This document shows, in pieces, positions 37,738-57,619 of a DNA stretch of 64,000 bases; within the stretch, counting starts at the first letter, position 1; each line of letters starts with the position of its first letter. The position numbers were made by a program, and so were the translations under genes. The notes below the pieces were generated by a model that saw only the letters and a program-made list of their open reading frames with translations, did not search any database and had not been told where the DNA came from. The stretch spans positions 806,001 to 870,000 of the forward strand of contig NC_087258.1 in NCBI RefSeq assembly GCF_037042905.1, given 5' to 3'. This DNA comes from Lytechinus pictus. Taxonomy: Eukaryota.

Positions 37738-37975
37738 TCGGTGTGTTGGCTCACAACCCCCCTCACAACCGGGGGGTCGGTGGTTCAAACCCCGGCCGCG
37801 TCATACCAAAAGAAGTTAAAAGATGGGAGTTGCTGCTACCCTGTTTGACGTTCAATGATTTAAGGGATAGAGCAACGTCGATCTGGAGCTGCACATTGGC
37901 TGCCAGGCCCATGATCAATTGGACAAAAAGAATTTAAGGTATTTCTATTTCAGAATTTATTTCGAACAATAAAAC
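37738..37975 (+). mobile_element. tRNA-derived SINE
   Basis: B-box-like GGTTCAAACCC head followed by a non-tRNA body (GGCCGCGTCATACCAAAAGA...). Confidence 0.55.
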
Positions 37976-38107
37976 ATGGATAAGCTTTGACGTTAACTTG
38001 AACTTGTAGCAATAATGGTAATTTAGATTTATGTGCTCAATCGATTTATGCATTAGAATGCAAGCTAGCCAGTGTAGCGAAAATATTTAGTTAGTTTAAA
38101 CTACACT

Positions 38108-38495
38108 ATTATTATTAGTAGTAGTAGTAGTAGTATTTGTTTGTCGTCACCTGTGCCTGGAAGGCGAAAAGCGAACTGAATCACTATGACCCGCAGGTCT
38201 CTCCTCCCGATATAACTCATTGGGGGAGTGCAGGTGGACAACTACACCGGGGTTTCCCCCTACTCTTATACGAATAGTGCAGTGGGTTCTTAACGTGCAA
38301 AGGTGGTGACTCTCCTCTACACGGGGCCTCCATTTAACGTCCTATCCGAGGGACGGAGTGTTTTCCACTGTAACATAGCCTGCATGTATGAAACATGGGA
38401 GAGACGTTTAAACACAACGCACTGGCTTCAGTCATCCGCCCGGGGTGGACTCGAACCCACGATCTTTGGTTACCGACTGAGCCAACAACGCTCTC
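38108..38495 (-). mobile_element. tRNA-derived SINE with a MetaSINE-like core and (TAC)n tail
   Basis: Minus strand: B box GGTTCGAGTCC, core CCCTCGGATAGGACGTTAAA.GGAGGCCCCGT...CGTTAAGAACCCACTGCACTATTCGTATAAGAGTAGGGG, then a trinucleotide tail. The MetaSINE assignment is from recall. Confidence 0.7.
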
Positions 38496-38591
38496 GACCT
38501 TCAAAATGTAGCTTCATCCCATCATCCCGACCACCCCCAGCCCCTTCTCGCTACGGATATAAACCACTTTATTGAGTGTTATGTAACGTAA

Positions 38592-38870
38592 AGGTCAAGT
38601 CCACCCCGAAAAAATGTTGATCTGAATAGATAAATCAAACTAGCATAACGCTGAAAATTTCATTGAAATCGGATGTAAAATAAGAAATTTATGACATTCT
38701 AAAGTTTCGCTTATTTTTCACAAAACAGTGATATGCACGATTCAGTGACATGCAAATGAGAGAGTCGATGATGTCCTTCACTCACTTTTTATTTAGTTTT
38801 TTATTGTTTGAATTATACAATATTTCATTTTTAACATATTTGACAATAAGGACCAACTTGATTGAACCAT
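38592..38870. mobile_element. Left half of the Kolobok/T2-like MITE interrupted by the Polinton
   Basis: AGGTCAAGTCCACCCC start, co-linear with 23187-23460 up to GACAATAAGGACCAACTTGATTGAACCAT. Confidence 0.85.
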
Positions 38871-39401
38871 AGAGAAAGAGGAAGTCCAAGTAAGTGCACA
38901 ATGGGCAAATTAGCATAACAATGGAATATGACGTAATAGTTAATTTGCATAACAATGGAGGGTATGAATGGCAAGATGACATCACACGATGAATATTCAT
39001 GAGTAGAACAAAAGAAGGGTATCGTGGATAAACAAAGGGAACAATGGGAGACCTCCTAGTCCAAGTAGGTGCACAATAGAGGTTTTAATGAATATGCATG
39101 AGCAGTCGAAAATCAAAGTAAGTGCACAATAGAGGGTCTCATGAATATGCATGAGCGGTCGAAAATCAAAGTAAGTGCACAATAGAGGGTCTAATGAATA
39201 TGCATGCGACAGGGTTGGTGACATGTCCAGGGTATGTTTCCTAGCAACAAGATAAACAAAAACCCAGCAACAAGGTAAACAAAATTGATTGGATGTATTT
39301 TTAACCCATTTCTATTGTTTGAAGGTTAAAATTAGAAACGGGGACGGATGAAACAATAAGAAAACTTGAATAGTAGCCTGAGAACGGAAAAACATAGCAA
39401 C
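38871..39401 (+). repeat. Left terminal inverted repeat (531 bp)
   Basis: Starts AGAGAAAGAGGAAGTCCAAG and is the reverse complement of 54635-55271. Contains about 2.6 copies of a 53-bp unit (GTGCAC at 39069, 39122, 39175). Confidence 0.95.
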
Positions 39402-39736
39402 AACTTAAAAATATGTAAAAGTTGCCCCTATTCTTACATTACTGGTACCTACATAGTCCAATAGATAAGAAAGTCTGGTTATGAACTGTATCCTTTCATG
39501 CTTGCAGCAAACAGTACTTCAAGAGAGGGGTCGATGATGTTGAGATGACTCTGTATTGACCAAAGAGATTATTTCCGCCCATCAATATTTTTGTATTCGG
39601 AGTTCACTCTGTATTGATCGAATAGATTAGTTCCCTCCATTCATACATGGGCGAAGGGAAATGACCGTAACCAATCTTCTCTTACATGTATAACATGTAT
39701 TTCAATCATTGCAATGTAAGTTGTTTGATATTTGTC

Positions 39737-39948
39737 AAGGGGGTCCAGTGCCTAGTAACAAGGGCTGTGTATTGACGATGGTTCAGTCGAGAAGCTGTTT
39801 GTTAGTTGCCAAGGGGGTCAACTGCCTAGTAACAGGGGCTATATATTGTCGAGGCATTACTCGAGATAGTCACATTCTTCAGGATAACTGTAGAGACAAG
39901 TGAGCTCCATCTATCGTATCAAGCCGTATCTACTTTTTGACACTTGCA
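39737..39948 (+). promoter_or_regulatory. Putative pPolB promoter and 5' non-coding exon
   Basis: Two 30-bp direct repeats (39737-39766, 39811-39840) directly followed by TATATATT (39840-39847). Donor GCA|GTAAGT at 39949 pairs with acceptor CTATTTCAG at 40184, 6 nt before ACC-ATG-G. Confidence 0.45.
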
Positions 39949-40190
39949 GTAAGTAGGAAATTTACTTTTCTATCTTAAATTACCGATTACTATTTGAAAC
40001 AAACTATTTAGAGTCGATTTATTATATGACACTGTTTTAAATATTCTATGCATAACATGATTTAACCCGAGAAGATGGAATTCTGTAAATGGATGTTACT
40101 TGTATCGATATGTTATTCATAAATGTTTAGGCCATGTCATCTGCATTTCTAAATTCTAAAACAAAATATATATGTCTATTTCAGAAGACC

Positions 40191-43100
40191 ATGGCTAGTC
40201 AGTGGACATCTCAGGATGAACATCAATATATTCAAGCTAGGCAAGTACTTGCCAGCTTGGAGGAGCGACGCAAACGACACCAGGCAAGGAGGGCCAATGA
40301 AAGGGCGGAATTGCTAGATGCAAGACGCGGAATTTCATCCGTTCGGTCCTCGCCTTCTTTGACCACGGAGGAGTATCCCGTTATCCCTGAAACTCCCGAT
40401 GACGAGGAGGAATATCCTGTCATTCCTGAAACCCCTTCTGAAATGGTAAGTTTATCATCTTTTAATATTTGAGTCAGTGTATATAGGAACAGAAAAAGAT
40501 AAAGCTTGAACAATAAACACAAGTGTTGATGTAACCAGTCTGACTTGTATGTTGTTATTTTTTCTTTACTTCTACGTTACAGATGGTGTCTGAAAGCCCT
40601 ACAAGGGATGAAGAGGAACGCATGGAATCCGAAATAGATCCCTCAGATTCTGAAATGGTACGTCCCTATCCTTGCTATTGTATACCCGTTTTTTTAAACT
40701 ATTTTGGGAAAAAAATATTTTAAAAATGTATGCAATAGATATGTAAGCTTTATCATTATAATCTAATAGCGTTTTATTCTTTTTTCATTTATACAATTTA
40801 GATTTTGCCAGATAGTAGTCGGGATCTGTTTGACTCTCAGAAAAGCAGCGCTCTCGATTCGAATACTCTCGAAAGTGAAAACAGCAAAGCCCCTGAATCG
40901 GATAACGTGGCCTCCGAAGAAGTAAGTAATTTCAATCTTTAAATATGACGTTACCTAATGAAGCAATGCTGGAGAATATCAAATGACTTAAAATAAGAGT
41001 ATCTAATATGCTTACTCTAATTCCACTTTCTTCTTTTTTTTGTGTGTGTATGCATATCCACAGGTAAACATGGAACATTTTTACGATGTTGTGGAGGAGC
41101 AAGAAAGAGATGCACCCCGCTTCGGAGGACGCGTGACGGATTTTAACATCGTCGTGAGGCCGTTGCATCGGCTTGTTGAGGAGATGGGCTCCCTCGAAGT
41201 TATAGGTAGATTATTTTCTAGCATTATTTCACGTCTAACCGAGGGTTTCTTGAACGGTGATCTTGTAGGTTTCATTCTGTCAGGTTCCAATTTACGTCAG
41301 GATGTAGGCATTCCTCTGACTCGATATGATCAACTATCAGTCGATCGAATTTTAGCTTTGTTGGAGCAAATTTTACAATCCAACGAAGATTTTAACATCT
41401 CGGAAGGATTCAAAATACGTTTAGTTCATATTCGTATGCCGCAAGGAGGTAAGGGATCGGAAAATATGATTCCCCTTGACAAATTCATTCGCAAAAAGGG
41501 TAGATTTATCCAAATTACAAACAAAGATGAGCTTTGCCTAGGTAGAGCACTGGTAGTAGCCATGGCACATGCTCATAAAGAGGAGGATCCTGCTAATTTT
41601 CATCAAATCACTCACCCTAAAAAATACACGACCCAATTTGATGCGGCAAAACAACTCTTTATAGACTCTAACGTACCGGAGGGTGTTTGTGGAATCCCAG
41701 AAATAGAAAAATTTCAAAATATCCTGACAGAGCGAGGGTACCAGATTGCCGTCTATGTCAATGGTGGAGCCCACGGCAGGATATATGCCGGACCACCCAA
41801 TAGGCATTTTCTTTCTTTATTCTATCACAACAATCACTTCGATGTCATCACTAAGATGCCAGCATTTCTTCGCAAATCATATTTCTGTAATACCTGTCTA
41901 AAGGGATACGATATGAAGGCCAAGCATAAGTGCAAAGATACATGCAGTGCCTGTAAGAGTGAGACAAATTGTGTATTGATTAAAAGAACAATGTGTGAAC
42001 GATGTGGGCGTGTGTTCAAAAGTCAAGAATGTTTCGACAACCATCTTAAACAGGTAAGTGGTAATAAGAGTGTATGTCGGTTATTCTTCAAATGTAAACA
42101 GTGCAATGTAATGTTAGATAGCACCCGCGGCAGTGACAAGACCCATGATTGTAGGTTCGGGTATTGTGAACGATGTCGTACTACAGTATCAAAGGAGGGT
42201 CATCAATGCTTTATGATTCCTCTGCCCAAGAAAAAGAAGAACAAAGCAAAAAATCAGGAAGAGAGGAAGAAAGGAGACGATACCCAAAAGTTTATTTTCT
42301 ACGACTTTGAATGTCGTCAAGATGACAAAGTCGATGAAAATGATCACGGTTCAGTCTTTAAACATGTACCCAATCTTTGTGTAGCAATAAGAGTGTGCGG
42401 GCAGTGTTTTGACAAACAAGATGCATGCCCTGATTGTGGGGTACGTGAACATGTTTTTAGGGGGAAAGACACGTTGGACAAGTTTGGGGAATGGTTATTT
42501 GGCATAGAGGAAGATCACAGGGGGGTCATTGCCATTGCTCACAATGCTCGATCCTACGATTCACAATTCATTCAGGAGTATTGTCTAAAGTCGGGGGTGG
42601 TACCTCAAGTCATCATGAGTGGTGCTAAAATTCTATCACTCACTTTAAATGATGTAAAATGTATAGACTCACTTAGTTTTCTTGCCATGCCATTGTCTTC
42701 TTTTCCTTCAACCTTTCAACTGAAGGAATTGAAAAAAGGGTTCTTTCCTCACTTTTTCAATACCCTCGAAAACCAAGATCATGACGGACCGACCTTGCCA
42801 CCTAAAAAATATTACGATCCAGATGGGATGTCAACAGAAAAACGCGACGAGTTTGATGTTTGGTATGCGCACCATCAAAACGACAATTTTAACCTTCAAA
42901 GAGAATTACTAGAGTATTGTCGTTCTGATGTCCAAATTCTGATGGAAGGTTGCATGGCTTTCAGACGTCTCTTTATGAGCGTCACGGATAACATCGACCC
43001 CTTCCATAACATAACGATTGCCTCAGCCTGCAATACTGTATTTCGGACGCAATTTTTGAAGCGAAATTCCATAGGTCTCATCCCTGTCCAAGGATACAGA

Positions 43101-44897
43101 CATAAAGATCGACACTCAATCATTGCCTTGAAATGGCTCGAATGGGTTAGTCATAACGAGGGAATTCAAATAGAGCATGCGCGTAACGGTGGTGAACATC
43201 GAATCGGCAACTACAAAGTGGATGGTTACGATTCAGCAACGCGGACTTGTTATGAATTTTTAGGGGATATTTGGCATGGGTGTCCACGCTGCTACAAAAG
43301 GCGTGATTTGCTTGTTCCTGGTTCCAGTACCACCGTTCAGGAGGTATACGACCAGACAATGTATAGAATAAATGCATTGAAGAAACAGGGATATCGCGTC
43401 ATCACGATGTGGGAGTGTGACTTTGCAAAATTAAGACGCGAAAACAAGACGCTACAGACGTTTTTGGAAAAACTACAGTTTCGGGATCCTCTCAATCCTC
43501 GGCATGCTTTTTACGGAGGGAGGACAAACGCGGTGAAATTGAGTCATAGAATTCAGGGTAATGAGAGAATCAAATATGTAGATGTTTGTAGTCTTTATCC
43601 TTGGGTTTGCAAGTACGGTAAATATCCCCTGGGTCATCCCGACATTATCACAAAGGATTTCGAGGATATTCAGCGCTATTTTGGATTGGTGAAATGTAAA
43701 GTCTACCCACCTCGACAACTATTTCACCCTGTTCTCCCATACAGGAATGAGGAGAATAAGCTTCTCTTTCCTTTGTGTCGCACATGCGCCAACGAAAAGC
43801 AAACTTCAAAATGTACGCATAGCGACGAGGAAAGGGCCCTTGAATCTACGTGGGTTACGGAGGAAGTAAAGAAGGCAATAGAATTGGGGTACAAGGTTGT
43901 AGAACTGTTCGAAGTGTGGCATTATCCTCACTTTGACCAATACAATCCTCGAACCCAGGAAGGAGGACTCTTCAGGGATTACATAGATCTGTTTTTGAAA
44001 GTCAAACAGGAATCAAGCGGATGGCCCTCCGAATGTCATTCCCATGACGACGAGGTGTCCGCCGATATACAAAAAAAGCGCGCAAATTATGTGAGACAAT
44101 ATCATGAAAGAGAAGGTGTGCTCTTAGACCCTTTAAAAATCAAAGCCAATAAAGGACTTAGGGCTGTGAGCAAGATTTGTCTTAACAGCTTTTGGGGCAA
44201 GTTTGGGCAGCGGAATAATCTTCCAAAGACAGTCTATACGGTGGAACCTGAAGAATTCTTCTCACTGGTGTCGGACCCCAAATTGATCATTAAATATGTC
44301 GACTTCCCTACTTCGTATATGGCGCACGTGCAATATGTTGAGGAGGATGACTTTTTAGAAGTCCTCCCCAACACAAATGTGGTAGTGGCTGCCTTCACCA
44401 CGTGTTGGGCTCGTCTGAAGCTCTATTCGTACCTCGAAGAGCTTCAGAAGAATGTGCTGTATTTTGATACAGATTCTATCATATACCTCAAGAATGATGA
44501 AGTAGAAGATGTCCCCACTGGGAATTTCTTGGGTGATATGACGGATGAATTAGAAAAAGATTTTGGGGTGGGTAGTTATATTACGGAACTTCAGGCCTTG
44601 GGACCAAAAAACTACAGCTACCAGGTTTTCTCAACCAAGCATGGAAAAGAAATGCCCGGAGCTTGCAAAGTACGTGGTATCACGCTAAATTATAGAAATG
44701 CAAAGCTGGTCAATTTCGACACACTCAACGAGCTCGTGCATGGTGAACGCACTCACACCACCGTTACAAATGCGCATAGAATCGCGAGGATGCGTACCCA
44801 CAATATTGTATCCCGCGTGGAAAATAAAATCCATCGTATGGTATATGATAAGAGGGTACGTCTATCCGATTTTAACACTGTTCCATATGGGTATTAA
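40191..44897 (+). CDS. polB: Protein-primed family B DNA polymerase (pPolB), spliced, about 1427 aa, with vOTU-like protease, Zn fingers, 3'-5' exonuclease and a Vsr-like insertion
   Basis: Motifs FYDFEC (ExoI), AHNARSYD (ExoII), YCRSDV (ExoIII), YVDVCSLYP (A), KICLNSFWGKFGQ (B), YFDTDS (C). Exons 40191-40445, 40583-40657, 40802-40921 and 41064-44897 are joined by phase-0 GT-AG introns. The identity is secure, while the upstream exons are predicted. Confidence 0.95.
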
Positions 44898-45732
44898 GAT
44901 ACATATGTTGTATTTCTACCATTGATACTCTTTACCTTCTAACATTCTATATTTGCATTGTATCTCACCTCCAAATTTTCCTATGTTATATTTAATTCAC
45001 GCGCTACAAAGAATACTTTATAAATCAAATATTTTTATGCCAAATTTTGTGTCATATTATTGCAAGCACTCGGTGCTACCTGATGATTGATGTAGTGTAT
45101 AAACGATAATATTTCAGTGTATGATAATTGCTCTTTGTTTACTTAGTTATGTAAAGGATTTCAGAATGGTGCAATATATATATATACTAAGAAAATTCTT
45201 GCCATTTAATTTGTTCGTACTTCTGCGAGTGTGTGTGTGTGTTTGCATGTTTAGAACGAGAGAGAGAGAGGGTTTTTCAATCGTATCCCTTATTCGCCTT
45301 CGGTTAGACGTGAACTATTGTAGGGAAAATAATCCACCACCCTCAATTTGAACGACGATGTATATGTATATTGTTATATGTAATCAAGATATATATTTTT
45401 TATATCCTGTGCTTATACATTATATATTTGACTTTTCAAAATGTCTGAAAATAAATACGAAAACAAATCACATTCATTGTTATCGATCGTCTCTTTTTAT
45501 TGTAATGTGTGCATAAAAAGGAGTGTGTATGACACGATAAGCGAGAGAGCATGAGGGAGGTCTTTTCGCCGATGTTTGATAAGCAATAAGTATGTTATAG
45601 GTAAATGCTATAAAACAAAAATAAAAAAAAATAAAAAGTACGAGATGTATAAAAGAACCGCAAAAAATCAGAGAGACTGAATGTACATGTATAAAGGAGA
45701 GTGATTCTGACAAGTTGGAGGCATTTGGTGGG

Positions 45733-46371
45733 ATGGACGTTCGCCTGAAACATCCATTTACAGCTCTCATAGCAGGACCGACGGGGTGCGGTAAAACTCA
45801 ATTTGTGAGGAAACTCCTCAAACATCATGAAAAATTGGTGGATAAACCTTTTGATAAAGTCATTTGGTGTTATGGGGAATATCAGGTGGGTTATGCTGAT
45901 ATGGCGAGGGATATGCCATTCATTGAATTTCAGGAAGGTATTCCCTCGGATTTGGAAGGGATATTTGACCGCAGGAACTCTAATCTAATCGTTCTGGATG
46001 ATTTAATGTCCCAGGCAAATCAGGATCAAAGGGTGTCGCACCTTTTCACTAAAGGTAGTCATCATCGCAACCTTTCCGTTATTTTAATAAGCCAGAACCT
46101 ATTTCATCAGGGAAAAGAAAGTAGAACCATCAGTCTCAATGCCCACTACATGATCTTGTTCAAAAATCCACGCGACTCTTCTCAGATTGTCCACTTGGCA
46201 AAACAAATTTACCCGCAAAATGGAAAATTTCTGCAAGAAGCCTATAAAGATGCAACGGGTCGACCTCATGGCTATCTCCTCGTAGACCTCAAACCAGACA
46301 CGGATGAAAAATTACGGTTAAGAAGTAATATTTTCCCTGGAGAAAGAAATGTGGTGTATGTCATGAAATAA
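45733..46371 (+). CDS. A32/FtsK-like DNA packaging ATPase
   Basis: Walker A GPTGCGKT, Walker B LIVLDD, and GSHHRNLSVILISQNLF. TATAAA boxes at 45648 and 45690. Confidence 0.95.
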   Translation: MDVRLKHPFTALIAGPTGCGKTQFVRKLLKHHEKLVDKPFDKVIWCYGEYQVGYADMARDMPFIEFQEGIPSDLEGIFDRRNSNLIVLDDLMSQANQDQRVSHLFTKGSHHRNLSVILISQNLFHQGKESRTISLNAHYMILFKNPRDSSQIVHLAKQIYPQNGKFLQEAYKDATGRPHGYLLVDLKPDTDEKLRLRSNIFPGERNVVYVMK

Positions 46372-46464
46372 CTGTGTTTGCCCTATAAAGAGGTTGGGCA
46401 AAATGGAATGGTCATCAGTTGACATATAAATACATTTGCGAAAGCAACAACAGACTCATTCGGC

Positions 46465-46785
46465 ATGTCTCGCCGTGTAAAGAGCAACATTCCATACCTG
46501 CGCGTCTTGGCTAGGGGAACCCCGGCACAAAGAAAAGGTGTACTGCAAGGTGCTAAAAAGGATTTGATTGAAACAATTTGTGAATGCGCACTTAATATCC
46601 TTCACGGCACTGTTCCTTTGTCTGTTGTGGAAAAAAATAAACTTCGTCAGCATAAGCACAAGTTGAGAAGCCTTTGTAATAAAAAGATCTCTCTTCAAAA
46701 AAAGAAAAAGAAGCTGGTAAACCAGAGAGGTGGATTTTTACCATTTTTGATTGCCCCAATCCTGGCTAAAATATTCAGATCGTAG
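46465..46785 (+). CDS. Small basic Polinton virion/core protein with an adenovirus pX-like C-terminus
   Basis: ICECALNILHGTVPL block, Lys run, then QRGG|FLPFLIAPILAKIF (protease-site-like motif plus amphipathic helix). Lies in the structural gene block. Confidence 0.8.
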   Translation: MSRRVKSNIPYLRVLARGTPAQRKGVLQGAKKDLIETICECALNILHGTVPLSVVEKNKLRQHKHKLRSLCNKKISLQKKKKKLVNQRGGFLPFLIAPILAKIFRS

Positions 46786-46805
46786 AAAAAAGGATAGCGA
46801 CCACC

Positions 46806-47594
46806 ATGCAGTACGCCAAAAAAATGGTGCTGGTACCCCACGAAACCGTTCAGCATGTTAACGCTTCGCACGAGCATGGAGTAGCTCCTACCTTTAAAGG
46901 TCTTGCCGGATTAGACGAGCAAATGCAGACTATTTTACGCAGGCAGGACATTCCAGAGGATGAAAGAGTGAAACTCTATCAGCAAGCCCTCATGGGGTAC
47001 ATCAACCTACATCACAAACTCAATGAACCGATAGCCCTACAGGTGGAGAATGTACCGGGGAATAATCTTCCTGCGATCACGTCTGCAAAGTCAAACGAAA
47101 AGGCAACGCTTCATACCGCTCCTTCCACCTCCCCCTGGATGCAGCGTGTCAAAGAGAGTGTCCCTAAAACACTGGTCCAGAAAGCAGGGCAAATCATGCA
47201 TCTCCTTCAATCTGCACCTGATCATCGCATAGCTATCAATGACAAGGGAGAAATTTTGTTGGATGGCAAGGCGCTAGAAGGAACGCACATTGTCGACCTA
47301 GTCAATGATATGTTGAGAAAGAGGAAGAGTTTTTCTCCAAAAGGATGGCAAGAATTTGCACGGGTGATGGCTACTCTGCATCCCCCGAGGGAGCTCGTGG
47401 GAAACCAAGATAGATGGAACTTCATGCAACGACAAATTTCTACCGAATCCTTACTTCCCCGAACTACAGAATTTCAAGATCACAAACCAGACAACTTGAA
47501 TACCGTGGAGGTGTTTGCTAGAGCGGATCACCTTCCTGCAACGAAAAGAGGTCGACCCAAGAGACAGTCCTCCCCAGACTGGATCCAGTATTGA
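46806..47594 (+). CDS. Conserved Polinton protein (PZ-like), function unknown
   Basis: Blocks AKKMVLVP, LDEQMQTIL...KLYQQAL and NDKGEI..DG...GTHIVDLV...PKGWQEF, recalled from animal Mavericks. Kozak-like CCACCATG. Confidence 0.75.
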   Translation: MQYAKKMVLVPHETVQHVNASHEHGVAPTFKGLAGLDEQMQTILRRQDIPEDERVKLYQQALMGYINLHHKLNEPIALQVENVPGNNLPAITSAKSNEKATLHTAPSTSPWMQRVKESVPKTLVQKAGQIMHLLQSAPDHRIAINDKGEILLDGKALEGTHIVDLVNDMLRKRKSFSPKGWQEFARVMATLHPPRELVGNQDRWNFMQRQISTESLLPRTTEFQDHKPDNLNTVEVFARADHLPATKRGRPKRQSSPDWIQY

Positions 47595-47748
47595 TAAACA
47601 TCGGTATTCAACTTTCTTATTCATTTCATGACACTTCTGTTCTCGAGCAACATGGGATGTTGGCCTCCGTCACTGAGGCTACAGTTGGAACGTGTCCGAT
47701 GTGCCTTGGCTTGCTGCAAAGGAAACATCAATATACACGAATCATCCG

Positions 47749-48819
47749 ATGGAGGACATCCTAAAAAAGGTGTATTACGATCCGGAAAACCCTGCCGGTT
47801 TTGGTGGTGTAGATGCTGTTTACCACGAGCTAAGGAAACAAAACAAAAATATAAAGAGGTCGGACATAAAGGAATGGTTGACAGAACAATCGACTTACAC
47901 ACTTCACAAACCCCTACGGAGAAGGTTTAAACGAAACAGAGTCATCGTCTATGGCATAGATCATCAGTGGCAAGTGGACCTGGTTGATATGCAGGCTCTC
48001 TCGCGACAAAATAAAGGATTCAAATATCTCCTGACCTGTATTGACATATTCTCCAAATATGCTTGGGTTTTACCCCTCAAAGACAAGAAAGCGGCGACCC
48101 TTGTTGAGGGCTTTCAGAAAATCTTGAAAGAAGGCCGAAAGCCATACAAACTACAATCTGATAAAGGAGGGGAATTTATCAACAAACCCTTTCAGCGCAT
48201 GTTGAAAGAAGAAGACATCGTATTCTTTACTACTCAGAACGAAACAAAAGCTAGCGTAGTAGAAAGATTCAACCGAACCCTCAAAGAGAAGATGTTCAAG
48301 TACTTCACCAGTCACAACACACGCAAATACACGAATGTACTGCAAAAGTTTGTTTCGGCTTACAATCGTCGCAAGCACTCGAGTATCGGCCGCCCACCCT
48401 CGGAGGTTAAGGCAACGAATGAGAAGGATGTATGGATGACGTTGTACGCTGACCTACCTAAAAAGGGTTCCAAGGAGGCAAAGTTTCGAATGGGAGATCA
48501 CGTGAGGCTTTCCATAGCAACGCAGGTTTTCAGGAAAGGGTATCTTCCCAAGTGGACGGAAGAGATATTCTCCATCAGCCGACTTATTGGAAGGACACCC
48601 ATCGTCTACAAAGTCAAGGACGCCGGTGGAGAAGAAATTGATGGCACCTTCTACGAACAGGAATTACAAAAAGTCGTCCCTCCGCGAGATGATTTTTACA
48701 AAATAGAAAAAATTCTGCATACTAGGAAGCGAGGAGGTGTGAAAGAATATTTCGTCAAATGGTGGGGCTATCCCGACAAGTTCAACAGTTACGTTACCGA
48801 CCTTAAAACTATTCCATAA
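47749..48819 (+). CDS. int: Retroviral-like (rve) DDE integrase with C-terminal chromodomain
   Basis: WQVDLVD, LQSDKGGEF and VVERFNRTLK form the catalytic triad. YKIEKIL...EYFVKWWGYPDKFNSYV is the chromodomain. Consistent with the 6-bp TSD. Confidence 0.96.
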   Translation: MEDILKKVYYDPENPAGFGGVDAVYHELRKQNKNIKRSDIKEWLTEQSTYTLHKPLRRRFKRNRVIVYGIDHQWQVDLVDMQALSRQNKGFKYLLTCIDIFSKYAWVLPLKDKKAATLVEGFQKILKEGRKPYKLQSDKGGEFINKPFQRMLKEEDIVFFTTQNETKASVVERFNRTLKEKMFKYFTSHNTRKYTNVLQKFVSAYNRRKHSSIGRPPSEVKATNEKDVWMTLYADLPKKGSKEAKFRMGDHVRLSIATQVFRKGYLPKWTEEIFSISRLIGRTPIVYKVKDAGGEEIDGTFYEQELQKVVPPRDDFYKIEKILHTRKRGGVKEYFVKWWGYPDKFNSYVTDLKTIP

Positions 48820-48859
48820 AAGAGATCAACCGAAGGCAACGGGTGTTATTTCACTCACC

Positions 48860-49624
48860 ATGGCTAAGACAACAGCATCCTCGTTTTATGTGACTCTGCC
48901 TAGCAACAGTTCACTCGATGTATTCCCTAGGAATACCCTCTCTTCGTTCAAAGTGAGACTACCTCATACCGTCATACTCGAGGGAATCTGGGAAATGGCG
49001 ATGGTAGAGCTGCACTACCCGAACAGATGGTTTAATTATCATTCTTCCCACTTGAACTCCGGAATTCTATACTCAGGCGATGGTGGAATAAGCTGGGACG
49101 AACATCGCATCCCAAATGGTTACTATGACAACATCAAAGAGCTTCTGATCCTAATTGTCCCGACAGATTTACGTCGTACCATTGAGTTTACATTCAACGA
49201 TTATTCTAGCAAAGTGACCTTTGTCACGCGAGATCCCTTTTACAGGGTAAAAATGACGGGAGGGTTGGCTACCATGTTGGGTTTTGAGGATGGGTCTTCC
49301 ATGGCGGGGCCATTAGAAGCTCCATTACCAGTCGATATGATGTTGTTTCATGGATTATATGTGTATACAGACCTCATTGAACATCAGCTTGTGGGCGATA
49401 CAAGGGCCCCTCTCTTACGAGTTGTGACAGTAAAGGACAGACATGGCAAAGACGTAACTGTCAATTTCGAGGCCCCGCACTATCTACCTATGAACCAGAA
49501 GCTCTTCAATACGATCGAAGTCCATATAAAGGATGACATGGGTCGTAGTATTCCATTCCAGCGTGGGAGAGTCGTTGTTAAACTACATCTGAGGAAGAGA
49601 TCGCCTTCTTTGATTCACGGATAA
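48860..49624 (+). CDS. Minor capsid (penton, single jelly-roll) protein
   Basis: FYVTLPSNSS...NTLSSFKVRLP at the N-terminus and YVYTDLIE.QLVGD..APLLR...IPF..G.V.VKLHLRK at the C-terminus, typical of Polinton pentons. Confidence 0.88.
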   Translation: MAKTTASSFYVTLPSNSSLDVFPRNTLSSFKVRLPHTVILEGIWEMAMVELHYPNRWFNYHSSHLNSGILYSGDGGISWDEHRIPNGYYDNIKELLILIVPTDLRRTIEFTFNDYSSKVTFVTRDPFYRVKMTGGLATMLGFEDGSSMAGPLEAPLPVDMMLFHGLYVYTDLIEHQLVGDTRAPLLRVVTVKDRHGKDVTVNFEAPHYLPMNQKLFNTIEVHIKDDMGRSIPFQRGRVVVKLHLRKRSPSLIHG

Positions 49625-49652
49625 GAGTGTATTTTTACAAGAAAAATTAAAC

Positions 49653-50108
49653 ATGGCGAGCACTGGTTATCTCTCGCCTCAAGTCTACACAGATTATTAC
49701 ACTAGCCAAGTAGGGAATGGTGTACCTGTATTCTCCGGAGGAGTGATGCAACAAGGTTTTGGTATTGGAGGTTTACTAGCCAGAGGACTGCGGGCAGCTA
49801 TGCCCCTTTTGAGAAGAGGAACGCAAGCCGTGGTTAAAAAGCTTGCCTTTAGAAAAGGGGGCAATTCATTGGCTCAGAGAGCTGTCAATGCCGGAATCAA
49901 CTTTGCAGCTGGGGCTTTGTCAGATCATCTTGATAAAAAGATCGGTGTTAGGAGGGCTCCCAAAAGAAAACGCGCTACCCGTCGACGACAGGCAACTGTC
50001 AAGAAAAGGCGAGTTGGGTCTAATAAAAAGGGGAAACGTCCAAAAGCATCCAACAGTCGTCCTGGAGTCGCTGCGAAGGCAAGAGCTCGAGATATTTTTG
50101 ACGCCTGA
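49653..50108 (+). CDS. Small basic core / membrane-active virion protein
   Basis: YTDYYTSQVGNG...MQQGFGIGGLLARGLRAAMPLL followed by an Arg/Lys-rich tail and C-terminal DIF. Located between penton and MCP. Confidence 0.8.
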   Translation: MASTGYLSPQVYTDYYTSQVGNGVPVFSGGVMQQGFGIGGLLARGLRAAMPLLRRGTQAVVKKLAFRKGGNSLAQRAVNAGINFAAGALSDHLDKKIGVRRAPKRKRATRRRQATVKKRRVGSNKKGKRPKASNSRPGVAAKARARDIFDA

Positions 50109-50135
50109 GAATAATCGGGAGAAAATCAAAGTACA

Positions 50136-51470
50136 ATGGCCTTTGTCCATAACGATTCGTGCGAGTGTGTCAAATCAGAGTTGGACCTCTTCAGTATTCC
50201 ACCTACTCAAACCAGTATTGAACAAGGGCAATGGATAGAATACCACCCCCTGGCTCAATTTTCAGACGGAGGACCCATCGAGTTTCACATTTCTGGTTCA
50301 GGAAGCGAATACCTAGATCTCACTCAGACACAGGTCTATGTAAAAGCAAAAGTGGTCCATCAGGATGGTACCAATCTTGTGGACGGAGATCAAGTTGGAC
50401 CGGTAAATCTGTTTCTGCACTCCCTCTTCTCACAAGTGGATGTCAGTTTAAACGATCGAGTGATCACGCCTTCTACACCAACCTACCCCTACAGGGCTAT
50501 GATTGAATCATTGCTTCAATATGGGTCAGAAGCCAAGGAGACCCAGCTGACCTCGGCTCTCTTCTACAAAGATACCGCTGGCTGTATGGATAATCCCAAC
50601 CCTCTAGATAATACCGGAGATGCCAACCAAGGTTTGAAGAAGAGACACGGTTACATCAGATCATCCAACAGTTTTGAGATGACGGGGCCGCTTCACTGCG
50701 ATCTATTCTTTCAACCCAAACACCTATTAAATGGTGTAGATGTACGAGTTAAAATGATCAGAAGCAAGGAAGAATTCTCCCTCATGTCTGCAACACCCGA
50801 TGCTCCCTACAAAGTTGTCATTCAAGATTGCTCCCTCTTTGTTCGGAAGGTTAAAGTTTCCCCCTCTGTGATGATAGGGCATGCAAGAGCGCTGGAAAAG
50901 GGAACAGCTAAATATCCAGTCCGACGTGTGATGTGCAAGGTTCTCTCTGTCCCTCGTGGGGAAATGACGTTACAGCAGGACCATCTTTTCCTGGGACAGA
51001 TTCCACAGCGTCTCGTTGTGGGATGTGTAGATAACAATGCTTTCAGTGGCAGTTATGTTCACAATCCGTTCAACTTTCAACACTTTGACGTCAATTACAT
51101 GTCCCTCTACGTAGATGGAACACAAGTTCCATCCAAACCATTAACTCCTGATTACGGACGTATCGCTGGATCGGCTTCAATCAGAGCTTATCATACCCTC
51201 TTTTCAGGAACGGATAAAATGTTCAGGGATTCTGGAAACGATATCAGTAGGGAGGACTACGATCGTGGATACGCACTCTATGCCTTTGACCTCTCCCCTG
51301 ACTTATCATCGGGTCAGCATTTCAACTTGAAAAAGCAAGGAAATCTGCGCTTGGAGATACATTTCAGGAAGAATCTACCACAGGGAGTGAACATTGTTGT
51401 CTATGCAGAATTTGACAACATCCTAGAAATTGACCGAGCCCGCAACGTCCTGTTTGATTATTCTGTGTAA
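50136..51470 (+). CDS. Double jelly-roll major capsid protein
   Basis: 444 aa. ECVKSELDLF.IPPTQTSI, PIEF.ISG....YLDL, LHSLFSQVDV.LN, YPYRA.IE.LL, NPFNFQHF and LYAFDLSPD motifs of the Polinton MCP. Confidence 0.95.
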   Translation: MAFVHNDSCECVKSELDLFSIPPTQTSIEQGQWIEYHPLAQFSDGGPIEFHISGSGSEYLDLTQTQVYVKAKVVHQDGTNLVDGDQVGPVNLFLHSLFSQVDVSLNDRVITPSTPTYPYRAMIESLLQYGSEAKETQLTSALFYKDTAGCMDNPNPLDNTGDANQGLKKRHGYIRSSNSFEMTGPLHCDLFFQPKHLLNGVDVRVKMIRSKEEFSLMSATPDAPYKVVIQDCSLFVRKVKVSPSVMIGHARALEKGTAKYPVRRVMCKVLSVPRGEMTLQQDHLFLGQIPQRLVVGCVDNNAFSGSYVHNPFNFQHFDVNYMSLYVDGTQVPSKPLTPDYGRIAGSASIRAYHTLFSGTDKMFRDSGNDISREDYDRGYALYAFDLSPDLSSGQHFNLKKQGNLRLEIHFRKNLPQGVNIVVYAEFDNILEIDRARNVLFDYSV

Positions 51471-51472
51471 AT

Positions 51473-52000
51473 ATGTATGCTTCCGATATTGATCGCATCA
51501 TGAGGAATGATACAGCAGTGGGAGGAATCTACGAGGGCGTTTATCCCTCCGATCGATTGATCATGGAAGCAGTGCCCCGACCTTCAGCTTATGTTGTTAA
51601 CCTAGACCCAGCCCATAAACCTGGAAGCCATTGGATCGGTATATTCATGGATAGCTCTGGAAATTCAGATTATTTTGACTCTTATGGAATCCCCCCACCC
51701 CCTGGAAAAATTCGGAAATTCTTACGTCAACATACGGATGGTCGAACCGGATGGAACCGCTTCAAGCTTCAGGGAGACTATTCCACAGTCTGCGGACAGT
51801 ATGTGATATTCTTCTTAACCCAACGTGCCAGGGGTAGAAATATGGATTCTGTCATTCGCAAATTTTCTTTGGATACGGATTTGAACGATCATCTTATCCG
51901 AGATTTTGTCCGAACTAACTATGGTTATGATCAACCGGTACATCAAACACACTTTCTGGATGACCAACTATCAAAGGCTGTTTATCCTTTGTTTCTTTGA
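51473..52000 (+). CDS. Adenain-like (Ulp1/C5 family) cysteine maturation protease
   Basis: VNLDP..KPGSHW (His), YFDSYG (Asp), LQ...STVCGQY (Gln/Cys). Confidence 0.93.
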   Translation: MYASDIDRIMRNDTAVGGIYEGVYPSDRLIMEAVPRPSAYVVNLDPAHKPGSHWIGIFMDSSGNSDYFDSYGIPPPPGKIRKFLRQHTDGRTGWNRFKLQGDYSTVCGQYVIFFLTQRARGRNMDSVIRKFSLDTDLNDHLIRDFVRTNYGYDQPVHQTHFLDDQLSKAVYPLFL

Positions 52001-52053
52001 TTTGTCATACGTATATAACATGTAAATATTGTTGTTTTGCTGTGATGAAAAAA

Positions 52054-52549
52054 AATAAAAATAAAGATGTAAATAGTATTTTCTTTGCTTCCCATGTCTC
52101 CTTATTTTAGTCATCAAAGTGTCTCGTTCTCCGATTTAACGTATACATTGCATACACACAGCCATACTGATACAGCCCAACAAATATTTGCAAACCTTTC
52201 TCGTGTACAAGAAAAGTTTTACAACCTCTTTTTCTTTTAAGCAAAACTTTTTTTCTCTCTCCCCCTCTCTTCTTTTTTATTCTCTCTTACCTCTCTCTCC
52301 TTTCCTCTTTATCCCCCCACCCTCTCTTCATCTTTTTTCATTAGATAAATACAATCCACGCCTAAGAAGTAAGACAAAGACCTTGCTTTACACTTCAATA
52401 ATAACTTTATTACATGTATTTACTCTATTTACATGAATCTTTCAAATAGGCCATTCGCATTTCCATACGATTATCTTACAACATGAATGCATGATAGTCA
52501 AACACTTGCCATAAATATGATCTAGAGATTGAAGATTTTACAGTTTATT
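52054..52549. terminator. Convergent polyadenylation region between the structural block and the right-arm genes
   Basis: Tandem AATAAA on + (52054-52065) followed by a T-rich tract. AATAAA on - at 52549-52544, just past the stop of ORF 52555-53139. Confidence 0.5.
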
Positions 52550-52554
52550 TACAT

Positions 52555-53139
52555 CTAAAAATCAAGACGCTGAGGGGATATAGTATATTCTTCTTCCCCT
52601 TCCTCTTCCTCGGATGTTTCAGAATCATCGTCTAATTTATCGATATACATCTCACGAATATCATCATCAAATGAAGGGGATTCAAATTTCCTATCCTTAA
52701 CATTGTACAGATCTACAATATCCTGGTGCCTAACGCAATCAAAACCGGGGGTTTTCTCATACCATTGCTCATAGGTATTTAGGAAATAGTCCACATCATC
52801 AACATATTTGACAAGGAGTTCCCTTACAAGTGTATTCCACGTACCAGTTGGACAGAGAAAGACATCACTCTGATCTGTTACAATGTGGGCATAAAATACT
52901 TTCCATTCCTTTAACAGTTTTCCTTTATCAATTTTCCTGAATACCTTTACAACCCCTGGTTCAATAAGTTCAGAGATCGTTATATTGTTCCAGTGATAAG
53001 GCATTTTGTAGTTTAGACATGCGTGGTAGGACGATGGATAGTGATGGAGGCAACCGTCGCAATCTGCCTGGCTCGGTATCATCAAGCTGGAGATCTTTCG
53101 GAATAGCTCTACTACTACGAACCCCTCCAGTATCTTCAT
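52555..53139 (-). CDS. Polinton accessory protein with a CxGC-x4-PS-x2-HxC putative metal-binding motif and acidic tail
   Basis: 194-aa ORF containing QADCDGCLHHYPSSYHACL and DDDSETSEEEEGEEE. Splice acceptor TATTCCATTTTAG at 53157 with the frame open to the ATG. Confidence 0.7.
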   Translation of the reverse strand: MKILEGFVVVELFRKISSLMIPSQADCDGCLHHYPSSYHACLNYKMPYHWNNITISELIEPGVVKVFRKIDKGKLLKEWKVFYAHIVTDQSDVFLCPTGTWNTLVRELLVKYVDDVDYFLNTYEQWYEKTPGFDCVRHQDIVDLYNVKDRKFESPSFDDDIREMYIDKLDDDSETSEEEEGEEEYTISPQRLDF

Positions 53140-53266
53140 GAATCGCTTGCCATTTTCTAAAATGGAATAAATATAGAAAGAACATACGCATAGCTATGTG
53201 GGACATGTTACTATAAAGCAATATTGTACGACTACAATATCAAGGATGTGTATGATGGATCAGCGT

Positions 53267-54382
53267 CTAAGATTTATTGTTTTGTAACAGCTGAAATCTC
53301 TTCCTATCAATGGCTTTGTGGATGCCCGGTACGGCTGCTGCCAGGTTGAGCCAATTCTCCCTGGTTAGATTTATGCCCTTCCGTCCAGCCATCATGCGGG
53401 TCCCATGGTGACCAATATTATAGTACTCTCTCACGTTCACGTAGATCTCCTTGTTAAACGTTTTCACCACAGCAAAACGCTTACCCCCTAGAGGAACGGC
53501 GTGGACGTCTTCCGGGAATCCTTCAACTTTTCCGTCGTCATCGACTTTTTTCCTCGGGGCTTCTGAGATACTGGCTGGGATCTCTAGCTTCAGCTGCTTC
53601 CTTGCCTTCTTTGCTGCAGCGTGGTCTTTCTCCGCGATCTCAACGGACTGGAAGGTCAATGAAACGAAAATACAAAATTATGGATATAAAATATAAAAAC
53701 AATAATAGAAAAAATGAATGACCGACCACCCGATTAAACCAAGGTAGCAACTGAAACTCGTTTCCAAGTGAATTCTGTATAACAAAACTCAAATTTCATG
53801 AAACAGACTCTCTATCCTTAATGAACATGTCCGGTTAATATTTGTAATACATGCAGATTAAATATTAAACAATTATAATTTTTGCATGCATACTACCATC
53901 TGGTATATCAACATTATACGTACACCCTCATGGACATATGCATGAGTACAAATATAGTAAATACGACCTTTTTCACACAAACATCATGGCATTACACTTA
54001 CCGTGGATGCTTTCCTCTTATCCGGTGTGGAGACTGGCGTGGGTGTCCCTTCGGGGAAGCGGAAGATGTCTTTAGTGTGGTGGGCAGCTACTGGAGTTGG
54101 GGGTGGGTGCAGACCTGCTGGCATAGAAGGCAGTATAGGTCTCTGCTCCATAGATGGAGGGTGTTGAGACAATCTTGTCACCGTGCTACTGTCTTTGTCT
54201 GATTCCTCTTCTATTGCTGGGGACGGACTTTCCCACTGCGTAACACCCGTCGAAGTGTTAAAATAATATGCCTTGTTCTCTCGCGAACTAAACCCCACCT
54301 GCCATCCCTCTTGCAATTCTTTGGAGGCCAACTTGAGTTCGGCTTCGAATACGCTTCCACAGGCATTTGAAATATCCGTCAT
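53267..54382 (-). CDS. Spliced WW-domain + PC4-like ssDNA-binding fusion protein (about 253 aa)
   Basis: Exon 54382-54002 carries WW (LQEGWQVGFSSRENKAYYFNTSTGVTQWESP) and donor ACG|GTAAGT. Exon 53647-53267 has acceptor TGACCTTCCAG and PC4 (LGGKRFAVVKTFNKEIYVNVREYY...GRKGINLTRENWLNL). Phase 0, in frame. Confidence 0.85.
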
Positions 54383-54472
54383 GGTAGGGTATGATAGAAA
54401 CTGTAACAGAAATCTGGTGACAGCTGCGATACGTGCGGTTGTACAGGTGGTGTGTCGTAAAATGAGGAGAAT

Positions 54473-54612
54473 TTCAAATTTCCCGCTTATATGACTTACT
54501 TCGCGTTGCTACGCAGAGGATCACGTGTTTGACACGACCAATGGGATTGTAAGCATAAGCAACGTCATAAACATTTCCACCAATCGTGTGGAAGAAAACT
54601 GTGGAGCACGTG
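54473..54612 (-). promoter_or_regulatory. Putative promoter of the WW-PC4 gene: TATA + E2F/CDE-CHR, CCAAT and E-boxes
   Basis: Minus strand TATAA-GCGG-GAAA-TTTGAA (54491-54473). CACGTG at 54522 and 54607, CCAAT at 54538 and 54580. Confidence 0.5.
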
Positions 54613-54634
54613 CTTTGCTGTTTGACCAAACAAC

Positions 54635-55271
54635 GTTGCTATGTTTTCCCGTTCTTAAGCAACTATTCAAGTTTTCTTATTGTTTCATCCGTCCCCGTTT
54701 CTAATTTTAACCTTCAAACAATAGAAATGGGTTAAAAATACATCCAATCAATTTTGTTTACCTTGTTGCTGGGTTTTTGTTTATCTTGTTGCTAGGAAAC
54801 ATACCCTGGACATGTCACCAACCCTGTCGCATGCATATTTATTAGACCCTCTATTGTGCACTTACTTTGATTTTCGACCGCTCATGCGTATTCATGAGAC
54901 CCTCTATTGTGCACTTACTTTCATTTTCGACTGCTCATGCATATTCATTAGACCCTCTATTGTGCACTTACTTTCATTTTCGACCGCTCATGCATATTCA
55001 TGAGACCCTCTATTGTGCACTTACTTTGATTTTCGACTGCTCATGCATATTCATTAAAACCTCTATTGTGCACCTACTTGGACTAGGAGGTCTCCCATTG
55101 TTCCCTTTGTTTATCCACGATACCCTTCTTTTGTTCTACTCATGAATATTCATCGTGTGATGTCATCTTGCCATTCATATCCTCCATTGTTATGCAAATT
55201 AACTATTACGTCATATTCCATTGTTATGCTAATTTGCCCATTGTGCACTTACTTGGACTTCCTCTTTCTCT
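54635..55271 (-). repeat. Right terminal inverted repeat (637 bp)
   Basis: Reverse complement of the left TIR plus two extra 53-bp units (106 bp). Ends CTTGGACTTCCTCTTTCTCT. Confidence 0.95.
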
Positions 55272-55572
55272 AACCATAAAGTACTAAATGCTAATTGCAG
55301 AAGTTCAGGGAGGAATTAATCATTGATTCACTCGAAAATAAGAATATTTCATATAATAAAATACACAAGAAATATTGTGAGTGGATGCGTCATCAGTCTC
55401 ATTTGCATACCAACCAGGATGTGCATATAACTGTTTTGTGAAATTAAGCAGAAACTTTCAAATGTAGCTTTCTTATTCTTAAATCCGATTTTGATGAAAT
55501 TCTCAGTTTTAATCTTGTTGGATTTTTTCTCTTTTTATTCAAATCAACTTTTTGTTGGAGTGAACATGTCCT
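55272..55572. mobile_element. Right half of the interrupted Kolobok/T2-like MITE
   Basis: Resumes exactly where the left half stopped (compare 23455-23773) and ends ...TGTCCT-TTAA. Confidence 0.85.
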
Positions 55573-57619
55573 TTAATTTACAAATGTCAAGTGTGTTCGA
55601 AACCAACTATTGTAGGCCTACATGTACTACTCTACAACTAAGTAGACTGAATTTGGTTTTAGCAATAAATCAGTGCCATAACTTAATGACAGAACATATT
55701 TATCCGATTTTTGTATATTTCTTCTAAAAGAAGAGTTTCTTAAAGGCTAATCTTTCGAATTCAAATCATGAACAAAAATACAACATATAGGCCTATATCA
55801 CAGGGAATTTCATCAAAATGGGTTGTATAATAATGGATATGGCATTTTATAGACAAGCAAAGTTTCAGCAAAAGTGGTGAAAATCGGGAGCCGGTCCCGG
55901 GGAGCCAGTTAAGACCAACGCGATCTTTTTCATTAGCATTTAATTATACAAAATTTAGAATAATCAGGGATTTATATTAAAATGATATAAATTATGTGCC
56001 GGACATTGGTTTCTTACACATTTGCATACCAACACCGTTAAGCATCTGCTCATTTACACACAAGGGAGTTTCGTATTCTAAATACGCTATAGAAAATGTT
56101 AGAATGAGTTACTTTATAAGACAATGCCTTTAATTGGACAATAAACATTAAAATATGCCAACCCCAAACATATTTTGACCTAGGGGTATGTAAGCCGTAA
56201 ATCATGTTCCATCAACCAACCTGTTCAACCCTTCCTCCTTCCTAATAAACACAGCAACCTACATACAGCGTCCCAATACCATGGCAACGGGCATGGCGGG
56301 GTCATTGGCATGTACCAGTTACCGTGCGTCTACAAACCCCCACGGGTTAACGCAACGGCTCAGGCACGTTCCAAAGATTAGGAATTAAAGGATTTGTAAA
56401 TCCCTAGCTAGGGTATAGGATCGACAATAAATCGAGAGCAATCGTAGATCAACTGAATTCATCCTGATTTCGTCTGGAAATCCCCATGATAAAGAAAATA
56501 TAATTTTGTGTATGCTATTTTGCAAACATAACCAATTACCTGAATAATGTGTTTCATGAATTACGTCTAATATCTTATACTGTTATAGCACGATTAATTA
56601 AGCATGATCATCGTTTGGTAATTGGCCTATATACATCTACCTCTACAAGTAACCATTCTAAATCAATGTCTGGCTCGGAAAGAGGATGATAATATCCATG
56701 TAAATATGGTAGAATATCCCTGAAAATATGATAAAGTATAAAGCTTTCTTTACAAGCGTTCATCCCGGGACACATGCAGAGCAAAAATGCTAAACGTAAT
56801 AATAATTTCGCTTGCATCTAAAGGTTTATTGCAATATACATTAAAGCATGATAAATTCATATATAAATTGTCTTCACTGCAAATTTGATTAATAGACATC
56901 AAAATATACAGGAGCAGATCGAGATGTAGGTAAAATGAGCGAAACATTTTGAGGGGACAGAACATGGCGTACATGTATATGCATGGGGCAACATGAATAC
57001 TTCAAAGGTCATGTGGGAACAAACGTTTTGACCTTCTAAAATGAAATTCTGATTTTGTGATAGATTTTTCGATAACCCTTTTCTTACTTTGGTCTGGAAG
57101 ATTTTGGGAGCAAATGCCACCCCCCCCCCCCCCCCCAAAAAAAAAAAAAAAAATTAATAACAAACAATATCTTTACGGTAATTCACTGGAAGAAATACTT
57201 TAAATTCTTTAAAAAGTATAAATGAAGTAAAAAAAAAAATCATAGGGTTAATAAGTCATAAAAATGTTCATAAAAGTACTGCTGGAAATTCGGACATGAA
57301 AATGAGCCTTCTATCGTCCCGTATTCAAAGAAAGCAATAGGAAATCTCAAATTGTTTGCTCTAGAACGTCAAAAGTCAAACAAGGCACACATTTTAGGCA
57401 AAATGAATGGGGTAGCCACACCTATAGGAGACCTATTCCCGATAGCACCAAACGATTTCCTTTTTCCGAACTTTGAGGTATCGGAAAGAATGGGGTAGGT
57501 GTAGCTGGTGTGACTGCTTCGCCAGAGTTACAGCAGGGAGTAACTGCAACTCCCTGGTTACAGTAACCATGACCAAAATTCGACGGGGTTCATGCAAGGC
57601 ATCAACTGGACCATAACAG

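Follow-up and report, generated by a model that had tools for sequence, protein, structure and literature searches.

A coding-intact Polinton/Maverick element with a WW/PC4 accessory gene in Lytechinus pictus

We describe a Polinton/Maverick element in a 64-kb window of the Lytechinus pictus genome (the whole stretch analysed, positions 806,001 to 870,000 of contig NC_087258.1). The element occupies positions 38871-55271 of the window (16,401 bp), and all positions given below are those of the window. It is probably a recently integrated, coding-intact copy, of the adintovirus type, of a Lytechinus family in which a protein carrying WW and PC4 domains aids replication or transcription. Intact animal Polintons are already known; what sets this one apart is splicing in the units at its two ends, together with the PC4/WW gene. 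The element has every Polinton/Maverick feature that was tested: pPolB, rve integrase, terminal inverted repeats (TIRs) with a target-site duplication (TSD), a major capsid protein (MCP) of the double jelly-roll type, penton, ATPase, and protease. An earlier reading of the same DNA, made without database searches (the sequence-only reading), had identified the element in the same way, and pPolB (PF03175), the A32-like ATPase, the integrase with chromodomain, the adenain-like protease, and the two capsid proteins all bear it out.

Termini, insertion site, and age

The element terminates in AGAGAAAGAG at one end and CTCTTTCTCT at the other. It is flanked by identical copies of the 6-bp TSD AACCAT (chance match ~3e-4), the perfect duplication reported before. 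The left boundary proposed at that time is correct, but the right one (55277) takes in the right TSD, and the element stops at 55271. Long TIRs, AG...CT ends, a 6-bp TSD, and a size within 13-25 kb are all as expected of a Polinton. The sequence is free of N throughout, the window's only gap (157 N at 59498-59654) being outside the element. The CpG observed/expected ratio, 0.80 in the element and 0.83 and 0.74 in the host flanks, does not separate the element from the host.

The outer 504 bp of the left and right TIRs differ by two substitutions, one of them within an array of 53-bp units. This corresponds to a distance of 0.4% (95% confidence interval 0.05-1.4%) and agrees with the few differences first noticed outside the array and the inner 30 bp. 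The right TIR carries two 53-bp units more than the left TIR. Three further substitutions are found in the inner ~30 bp (39375-39401 and 54635-54661).

Four of 24 listed sequencing runs were compared with the window over 36100-54630, a stretch that ends before the right TIR and right flank, so that a joint skipping the whole element had no place in which to show up. In the DNA runs X1 and X2 (organism A), a relative of the element spans all 30 bins. Its divergence from the window amounts to 2.2-2.9% where the sequence is coding and reaches 5.6-5.9% in the intron-rich stretch; at 2-6% difference, the organism A lineage may be another species than the host. All 10 element indels among those listed (29 further rows lie beyond) sit outside coding exons, within introns or between genes. 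The 3,095-nt pPolB piece of the relative is gap-free. One X2 contig extends into a right TIR. TIR positions were examined at 11 of the 40 rows listed. At eight of eight core-TIR positions where organism A differs, the same letter stands in both TIRs of the window, implying that TIR pairs are homogenised separately in each lineage, which is what replication after the split should produce. At three of three inner positions organism A carries the window's right-TIR letter. Since organism A's right end shares them, the inner-edge differences must be old, and TIR homogenisation reaches no further than this edge. With TIRs only 0.4% apart against the intron-region divergence from this sister lineage, the recent insertion claimed earlier is upheld. 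The insertion appears to be younger than the split from the organism A lineage, and the family would have been mobile since that split.

The insertion target is a host miniature inverted-repeat transposable element (MITE). Once the element is taken out together with one TSD, the joined flanks make up a MITE that is co-linear with two further copies, at ~8347-9112 and ~23186-23779 (84.7% and 86.3% identity, respectively; the two copies share 87.4%), and this co-linearity fixes the insertion point. The sequence-only reading had called this a provable empty site. The co-linearity stands, but it is a reconstruction from paralogous MITEs rather than an observed empty allele. An empty allele was weighed as the source of loose ends at 38871, but this interpretation was dropped because the letters of these ends match other MITE copies and not the sequence that starts at 55278. 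Among the contigs listed there is no long flank contig of high identity. A nested insertion of ~170 bp (8788-8951), with its own 45-bp inverted repeats, is present in the MITE copy at 8347-9112.

Core genes and spliced terminal units

Nine core open reading frames (ORFs), all on the plus strand, are uninterrupted and about as long as their homologues. The residues that we take to be catalytic are all present: D77, D138, and E172 of the integrase (D-D-E), H53, D69, Q100, and C107 of the protease (H-D-Q-C), Walker A/B of the ATPase, and the exonuclease and polymerase aspartates of pPolB. The coding intactness reported by the sequence-only reading is thus confirmed. As a correction, three apparent small ORFs, at 40134-40472, 52555-53139, and 53984-54382, are exons of spliced genes. 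Coordinates are given in Table 1.

Both capsid genes were recognised by predicted structure. The MCP model (pLDDT 88.3) matches iridovirus, Sputnik, PBCV-1, and mavirus MCPs with E down to 9e-18 (TM ~0.6 to the first three). For the penton model (pLDDT 86.5) the top Foldseek match is the mavirus penton (E=3e-10, TM 0.49), followed by those of Sputnik and adenovirus. Eighty related metagenome loci served as the comparison set (22 of them reach 7 kb), and the order ATPase-PM-(PZ)-INT-penton-PW-MCP-PRO is found again in most of the 30 longest. At columns conserved in at least 90% of homologues, which are merely 25-59% identical to the element proteins, the element keeps 66 of 72 in the ATPase, 91 of 99 in the integrase (INT), 150 of 166 in MCP, 21 of 25 in PM, 16 of 20 in PZ, and 16 of 22 in PW.

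The main exon of pPolB includes a putative terminal-protein region and vOTU-like, Cys-rich, exonuclease, and polymerase domains; a PDB sequence search with pPolB gave no meaningful match. Three upstream exons join it in phase 0, predicting a protein of 1427 aa, so that the left unit would yield a pPolB with an N-terminal extension of ~150 aa. All these exons are exact substrings of the L. pictus RefSeq model P0275, and the pPolB model of L. variegatus also has 1427 aa, matching the predicted length. pPolB keeps 204 of 205 columns that are at least 90% conserved among 48 homologues. C156 and H256, conserved at this level, are presumably the vOTU Cys and His, judging by the motif and the available text of PMC11071308. 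A crude pN/pS of ~0.18, for which X1 nucleotide counts were mixed with P0398 amino-acid counts and treated as one lineage, suggests that pPolB is under purifying selection.

At the right end, a WW exon and a PC4 exon predict a protein of 253 aa, and a RefSeq model of the same length is identical at 251 residues. The WW domain aligns without gaps to Pin1-type and PCIF1 WW domains and has a loop of Pin1/PCIF1 length. The PC4 domain scores 40.4 bits against a Pfam cut-off of 25. Because the PC4 exon (53268-53647) has no ATG of its own, it escapes ORF lists. In the RNA-like run X14, contig 13 joins 54002 to 53647, i.e., it skips exactly the predicted intron 53648-54001. The DNA contig X2-19 retains this intron, so WW-PC4 splicing is shown in a close relative: the spliced contig derives from a 97%-identical relative, not from the window copy. 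All seven predicted introns have intact GT-AG splice signals. The sequence-only reading overlooked the spliced structure at both ends as well as the WW/PC4 gene.

Splicing from an internal donor (53484) to the acceptor at 53157 would give an alternative isoform of 381 aa, for which a RefSeq model exists; the PC4 core is lost and an exon with a Cys/His motif and acidic tail (exon 3) is gained. Exon 3 is identical to RefSeq model P0273 at 195 of 199 aa. P0131, a model from a sister family, uses the same alternative junction, and the WW gene is 42% identical there. A 22-aa Cys/His stretch of exon 3, and no more than that stretch, matches P0151 (E=1e-6), and an ESM Atlas search with exon 3 returned nothing above its bars. 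A further model, P0123 (XP_054761054), fuses WW plus a portion of the PC4 exon with a different frame of exon 3 and may be a degraded copy or a mis-model.

PC4-like genes are also found in related loci. A profile built from 12 PC4-like proteins matches 15 ORFs in 14 of the 80 loci; when 12 of the 15 were put through Pfam, 10 matched PC4 (7 above cut-off). Eight of the 11 listed ORFs are located on the opposite strand downstream of MCP, as in the Lytechinus element. Four proteins among 153 (P0151, P0192, P0197, and P0228) likewise fuse WW and PC4, and the Cys/His motif of exon 3 also closes one of these four. Scans of viral contigs with MCP and with the WW+PC4 alignment found no relative. In two loci (L035:290-1258 and L072:6264-7304) a multi-PC4 or PC4-like ORF sits upstream of the ATPase or integrase and shares its strand; in L072, pPolB is on the opposite strand and the module order is rearranged.

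The Lytechinus RefSeq models already contain these exon structures but are labelled uncharacterized host genes, their viral nature being unrecognised. XP_063965780, XP_041483336, XP_041483314, XP_054752689, XP_041453371, and XP_041478871 represent the window copy, copies 96-99% identical to it, or the sister family (MCP 84-85% identical), which is present in both Lytechinus species. P0399, an older RefSeq model that carries the gene id of the window copy, has 6 tallied residue differences and may be another allele or another copy. On a second L. pictus contig, a pPolB model of the same family (5 differences) is truncated at 340 aa. L. variegatus has pPolB on two contigs, one of 1427 aa (50 differences) and one truncated to 1171 aa, and its MCP is identical at 439 of 444 residues. 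No horizontal transfer between the two species is claimed, as protein identity of 96-99% and intron divergence of ~5.7% fit inheritance.

Table 1. Features of the element and its insertion site (window positions)
Feature	Position	Strand	Basis or remark
Host MITE, left part (insertion target)	38587-38864		Co-linear with other MITE copies
Left TSD, AACCAT	38865-38870	+	Direct reading of flanks
Left TIR, ~531 bp	38871-39401	+	2.7 copies of 53-bp unit at 39063-39206
74-bp tandem duplication, putative left promoter region	39718-39866		Repeat analysis
pPolB upstream coding exon 1, 85 aa, acidic/basic low complexity	40185-40445	+	ATG 40191; GT-AG, phase 0
pPolB upstream coding exon 2, 25 aa	40583-40657	+	GT-AG; RefSeq model
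pPolB upstream coding exon 3, 40 aa	40802-40921	+	GT-AG; RefSeq model
pPolB main exon	41064-44897	+	PF03175 E=1e-40
Packaging ATPase (A32/IVa2-like)	45733-46371	+	PF04665 E=5e-7, PF02456 E=4e-5; Walker A/B retained
PM-position gene, 106 aa	46465-46785	+	Homologue in 36/80 loci; named by position after PMC8097293
PZ-position gene, 262 aa	46806-47594	+	Homologue in 17/80 loci; named by position
rve integrase with C-terminal chromodomain	47749-48819	+	PF00665 E=7e-12, PF00385; PFV/Ty integrase matches
Minor capsid protein (penton)	48860-49624	+	Predicted-structure match
PW-position basic core-like protein, 151 aa	49653-50108	+	Homologue in 58/80 loci; Arg/Lys-rich C-terminus
MCP, double jelly-roll	50136-51470	+	Predicted-structure match
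Adenain/Ulp1-like cysteine protease (PRO)	51473-52000	+	African swine fever virus (ASFV) pS273R match E=1.7e-4
Right-end gene exon 3, Cys/His motif and acidic tail	52555-53156	-	Last exon of 381-aa isoform
Right-end gene exon 2, PC4/Sub1-like single-stranded DNA (ssDNA)-binding domain	53268-53647	-	PF02229 E=2e-10; PC4/MoSub1 PDB matches
Right-end gene exon 1 (coding), WW domain and Pro/Ser/Thr-rich linker	54002-54382	-	PF00397 E=9e-10
Right TIR, ~637 bp	54635-55271	-	4.7 copies of 53-bp unit
Right TSD, AACCAT	55272-55277	+	Direct reading of flanks
Host MITE, right part	55278-55577		Alignment

Proposed life cycle and alternative explanations

In the life cycle we propose, the rve integrase would insert a linear copy into the old MITE by a 6-bp staggered cut. 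Replication by pPolB would be protein-primed and start from the TIR ends, keeping left and right TIRs identical within a lineage, and the vOTU may release the terminal protein, as modelled in the available text of PMC11071308. The ATPase, MCP, penton, core protein, and protease would serve packaging. Each end is predicted to drive an inward, intron-containing unit processed by the host spliceosome, the right unit giving rise to WW+PC4 or, via the internal donor, to WW plus the Cys/His-acidic protein. WW+PC4 would be a dimeric binder of melted or displaced viral ssDNA, its WW domain tethering it to phospho-Ser/Thr-Pro partners (e.g., the RNA polymerase II tail). To judge from its domains, it is most likely a helper of replication or transcription, and the splice switch would trade the DNA-binding half for another regulator. 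PC4 dimers are known to bind ssDNA, and the homologue of phage T5 works in replication (PMC7549692, available text).

Several observations weigh against this account. Even the best run contains a share of just 0.41 of the sampled words, no RNA run is listed as containing the copy, and the window copy itself is not seen in the reads. The compared reads show no empty allele, virion evidence, or pile-up of molecule ends, although contigs cannot show ends. The evidence for the 381-aa isoform consists of gene models and splice signals, and so does that for the pPolB introns, whose joints are absent from the read rows listed. In the raw RNA run X22 (organism B, 6% read), depth is 1-6 over 40-49 kb, the reads are mostly first-mate-plus (antisense, should the library follow the common stranded design), and there is no depth over the core, MCP, protease, and right-end exons. 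X22 does not support expression of the whole copy there. The two other annotated copies of the family are truncated, as described above. The pN/pS of pPolB indicates far weaker constraint than the 0.001-0.0001 given for cyprinid Mavericks in the available text of PMC8097293. Finally, the element departs from its distant homologues at conserved columns, keeping only 25 of 34 in the protease and 39 of 47 in the penton; these departures are probably lineage differences rather than harmful changes. As a separate observation, the low X22 coverage (40400-49077) ends abruptly inside the penton gene; the animal sampled could have a truncated copy that is transcribed by read-through.

Another explanation is a currently productive endogenous virus, the particles of which reinfect the germ line. 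In this case the insertion would segregate and the terminal units would be early regulatory units like E1/E2 and E4 of adenovirus. The sequence-only reading had leaned this way, inferring a potentially active endogenous virus that is likely polymorphic in the population. The complete morphogenesis set with proper predicted folds and the TIR homogenisation would fit such a virus. Contigs of the organism A relative are long and unbranched, with a depth of 100-145 in X1 and ~300 in X2 versus ~50 in short flank pieces, but depth is not copy number. X14 contigs cover pPolB, penton/core, MCP, and the right end. There are almost none over the ATPase, and this near-zero depth speaks against even DNA carry-over, yet the MCP contigs of X14 are intronless and could be DNA, and X22 has no reads over the MCP region. 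Neither particles nor free ends nor an empty allele were seen in the compared reads, with the limit on contigs noted above, and animal Maverick virions are reported as unobserved (PMC8097293, available text). We consider a productive virus unlikely, though it deserves some weight.

The element may also be a silent, fixed relic too young for decay, its transcripts being host read-through or coming from other copies. The two TIR substitutions and the two-unit array difference indicate some residence time, P0399 could represent this insertion's second allele, and the X22 reads are low and antisense-looking. We regard this as rather improbable, given that none of the nine core ORFs is disrupted, that each of the seven predicted introns keeps its splice signals, that a sense-type spliced contig is known for the family, and that the TIR distance is so small. 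A low probability is likewise assigned to the WW/PC4 gene being a captured host gene, neutral or host-serving and outside the life cycle of the element: WW and PC4 domains are both common in cellular proteins and Mavericks bear cargo genes in accessory regions (PMC8097293, available text), but PC4-like ORFs recur in distant loci, mostly in the same orientation downstream of MCP, and the sister family (MCP 85%) retains the WW gene with its alternative junction despite 42% identity.

The surrounding host DNA contains a Ser/Thr-rich open frame of 2,249 codons with 345-bp tandem repeats, resembling a mucin-like exon (28660-35406, minus strand). Downstream of it, at ~24588-24917 (minus strand), an exon resembles a transmembrane segment and cytoplasmic tail. 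The Polinton may be located upstream of this mucin-like gene or in one of its introns. Two host ORFs of 522 and 668 codons (11682-13247 and 13574-15577, minus strand) have no Pfam match above cut-off. Directly left of the MITE (~37760-38470) is a very high-copy repeat resembling a short interspersed nuclear element, with tRNA-like loose ends and deep X22 RNA coverage.

Comparison with known systems

The available text of PMC8097293 describes 134 intact Mavericks in 17 vertebrates. They have the same nine conserved genes (pPolB, ATPase, PM, PZ, INT, minor capsid, PW, MCP, and protease) as the Lytechinus element, TIRs of 46-1,447 bp, a mean size of 16.9 kb, and a 6-bp TSD, all of which the Lytechinus element fits. 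AG-repeat-like ends and accessory regions at both ends are also common to the two. The end motif is AGAGAA in Lytechinus, not the (AG)3 of vertebrate Mavericks, and both modules are on one strand, an arrangement reported there only for Xenopus tropicalis. No introns are reported in that text for intact vertebrate Maverick genes, and intact Mavericks are defined there by intronless conserved ORFs. The Lytechinus element, by contrast, has seven predicted GT-AG introns, one of them seen spliced; eight core ORFs are single-exon, and pPolB is modelled with three upstream exons. It also carries the WW/PC4 accessory gene, unlike the vertebrate Mavericks of PMC8097293.

Adintoviruses, whose contigs include one from a sea urchin, Strongylocentrotus (PMC8502044), share an OTU-like pPolB, rve integrase with chromodomain, FtsK-type ATPase, hexon, penton, and adenain with the element (PMC8502044 and PMC11071296). 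The N-terminal OTU-like region of PolB (a sequence motif) and the integrase chromodomain (PF00385) place it among them. The main texts and the available part of the supplement of these papers do not mention splicing or PC4. Many expressed polintoviruses are reported from stony corals, in an available text that lacks the terms PC4, WW, intron, and splicing (PMC11131425). Likewise, spliced animal Polinton genes and PC4 are undescribed in the available parts of PMC11071296, PMC10748475, 10.64898/2026.10.13.758929, and 10.1101/2021.04.08.439009. Among the open-access papers listed in our searches, titles and abstract openings showed neither PC4 in Polintons nor spliced animal Polinton genes; Repbase, supplements, or subscription papers could hold one.

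The layout of spliced units at both ends resembles that of adenovirus; this is an analogy only, with no sequence relation to E4 or DBP established. In adenovirus, spliced units run inward from both inverted ends, the polymerase/terminal-protein message is spliced, and an ssDNA binder acts in strand-displacement replication. A broader but doubtful proposal is that animal Polintons follow an adenovirus-like programme (spliced end units, the widespread PC4-like gene as an unrecognised ssDNA-binding protein, its fusion here to a WW domain of the RNA polymerase II-tail type, and a splice switch) and that the Lytechinus family still forms particles. If true, the family would be a virus that makes particles in an animal suited to laboratory work. 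Virion formation by animal Polintons/Mavericks is still a question (PMC8097293, available text). Lytechinus has a young, intact, and transcribed family, and since both knockouts and cell lines have been reported for this animal (PMC9245184 and PMC12521550), observational tests are easy. Because the terminal exons are spliced, annotation from ORFs alone truncates pPolB and overlooks an entire accessory gene. The PC4-like gene of the Lytechinus element is a candidate for an ssDNA-binding or trans-activating function that is absent from the standard Polinton gene list.

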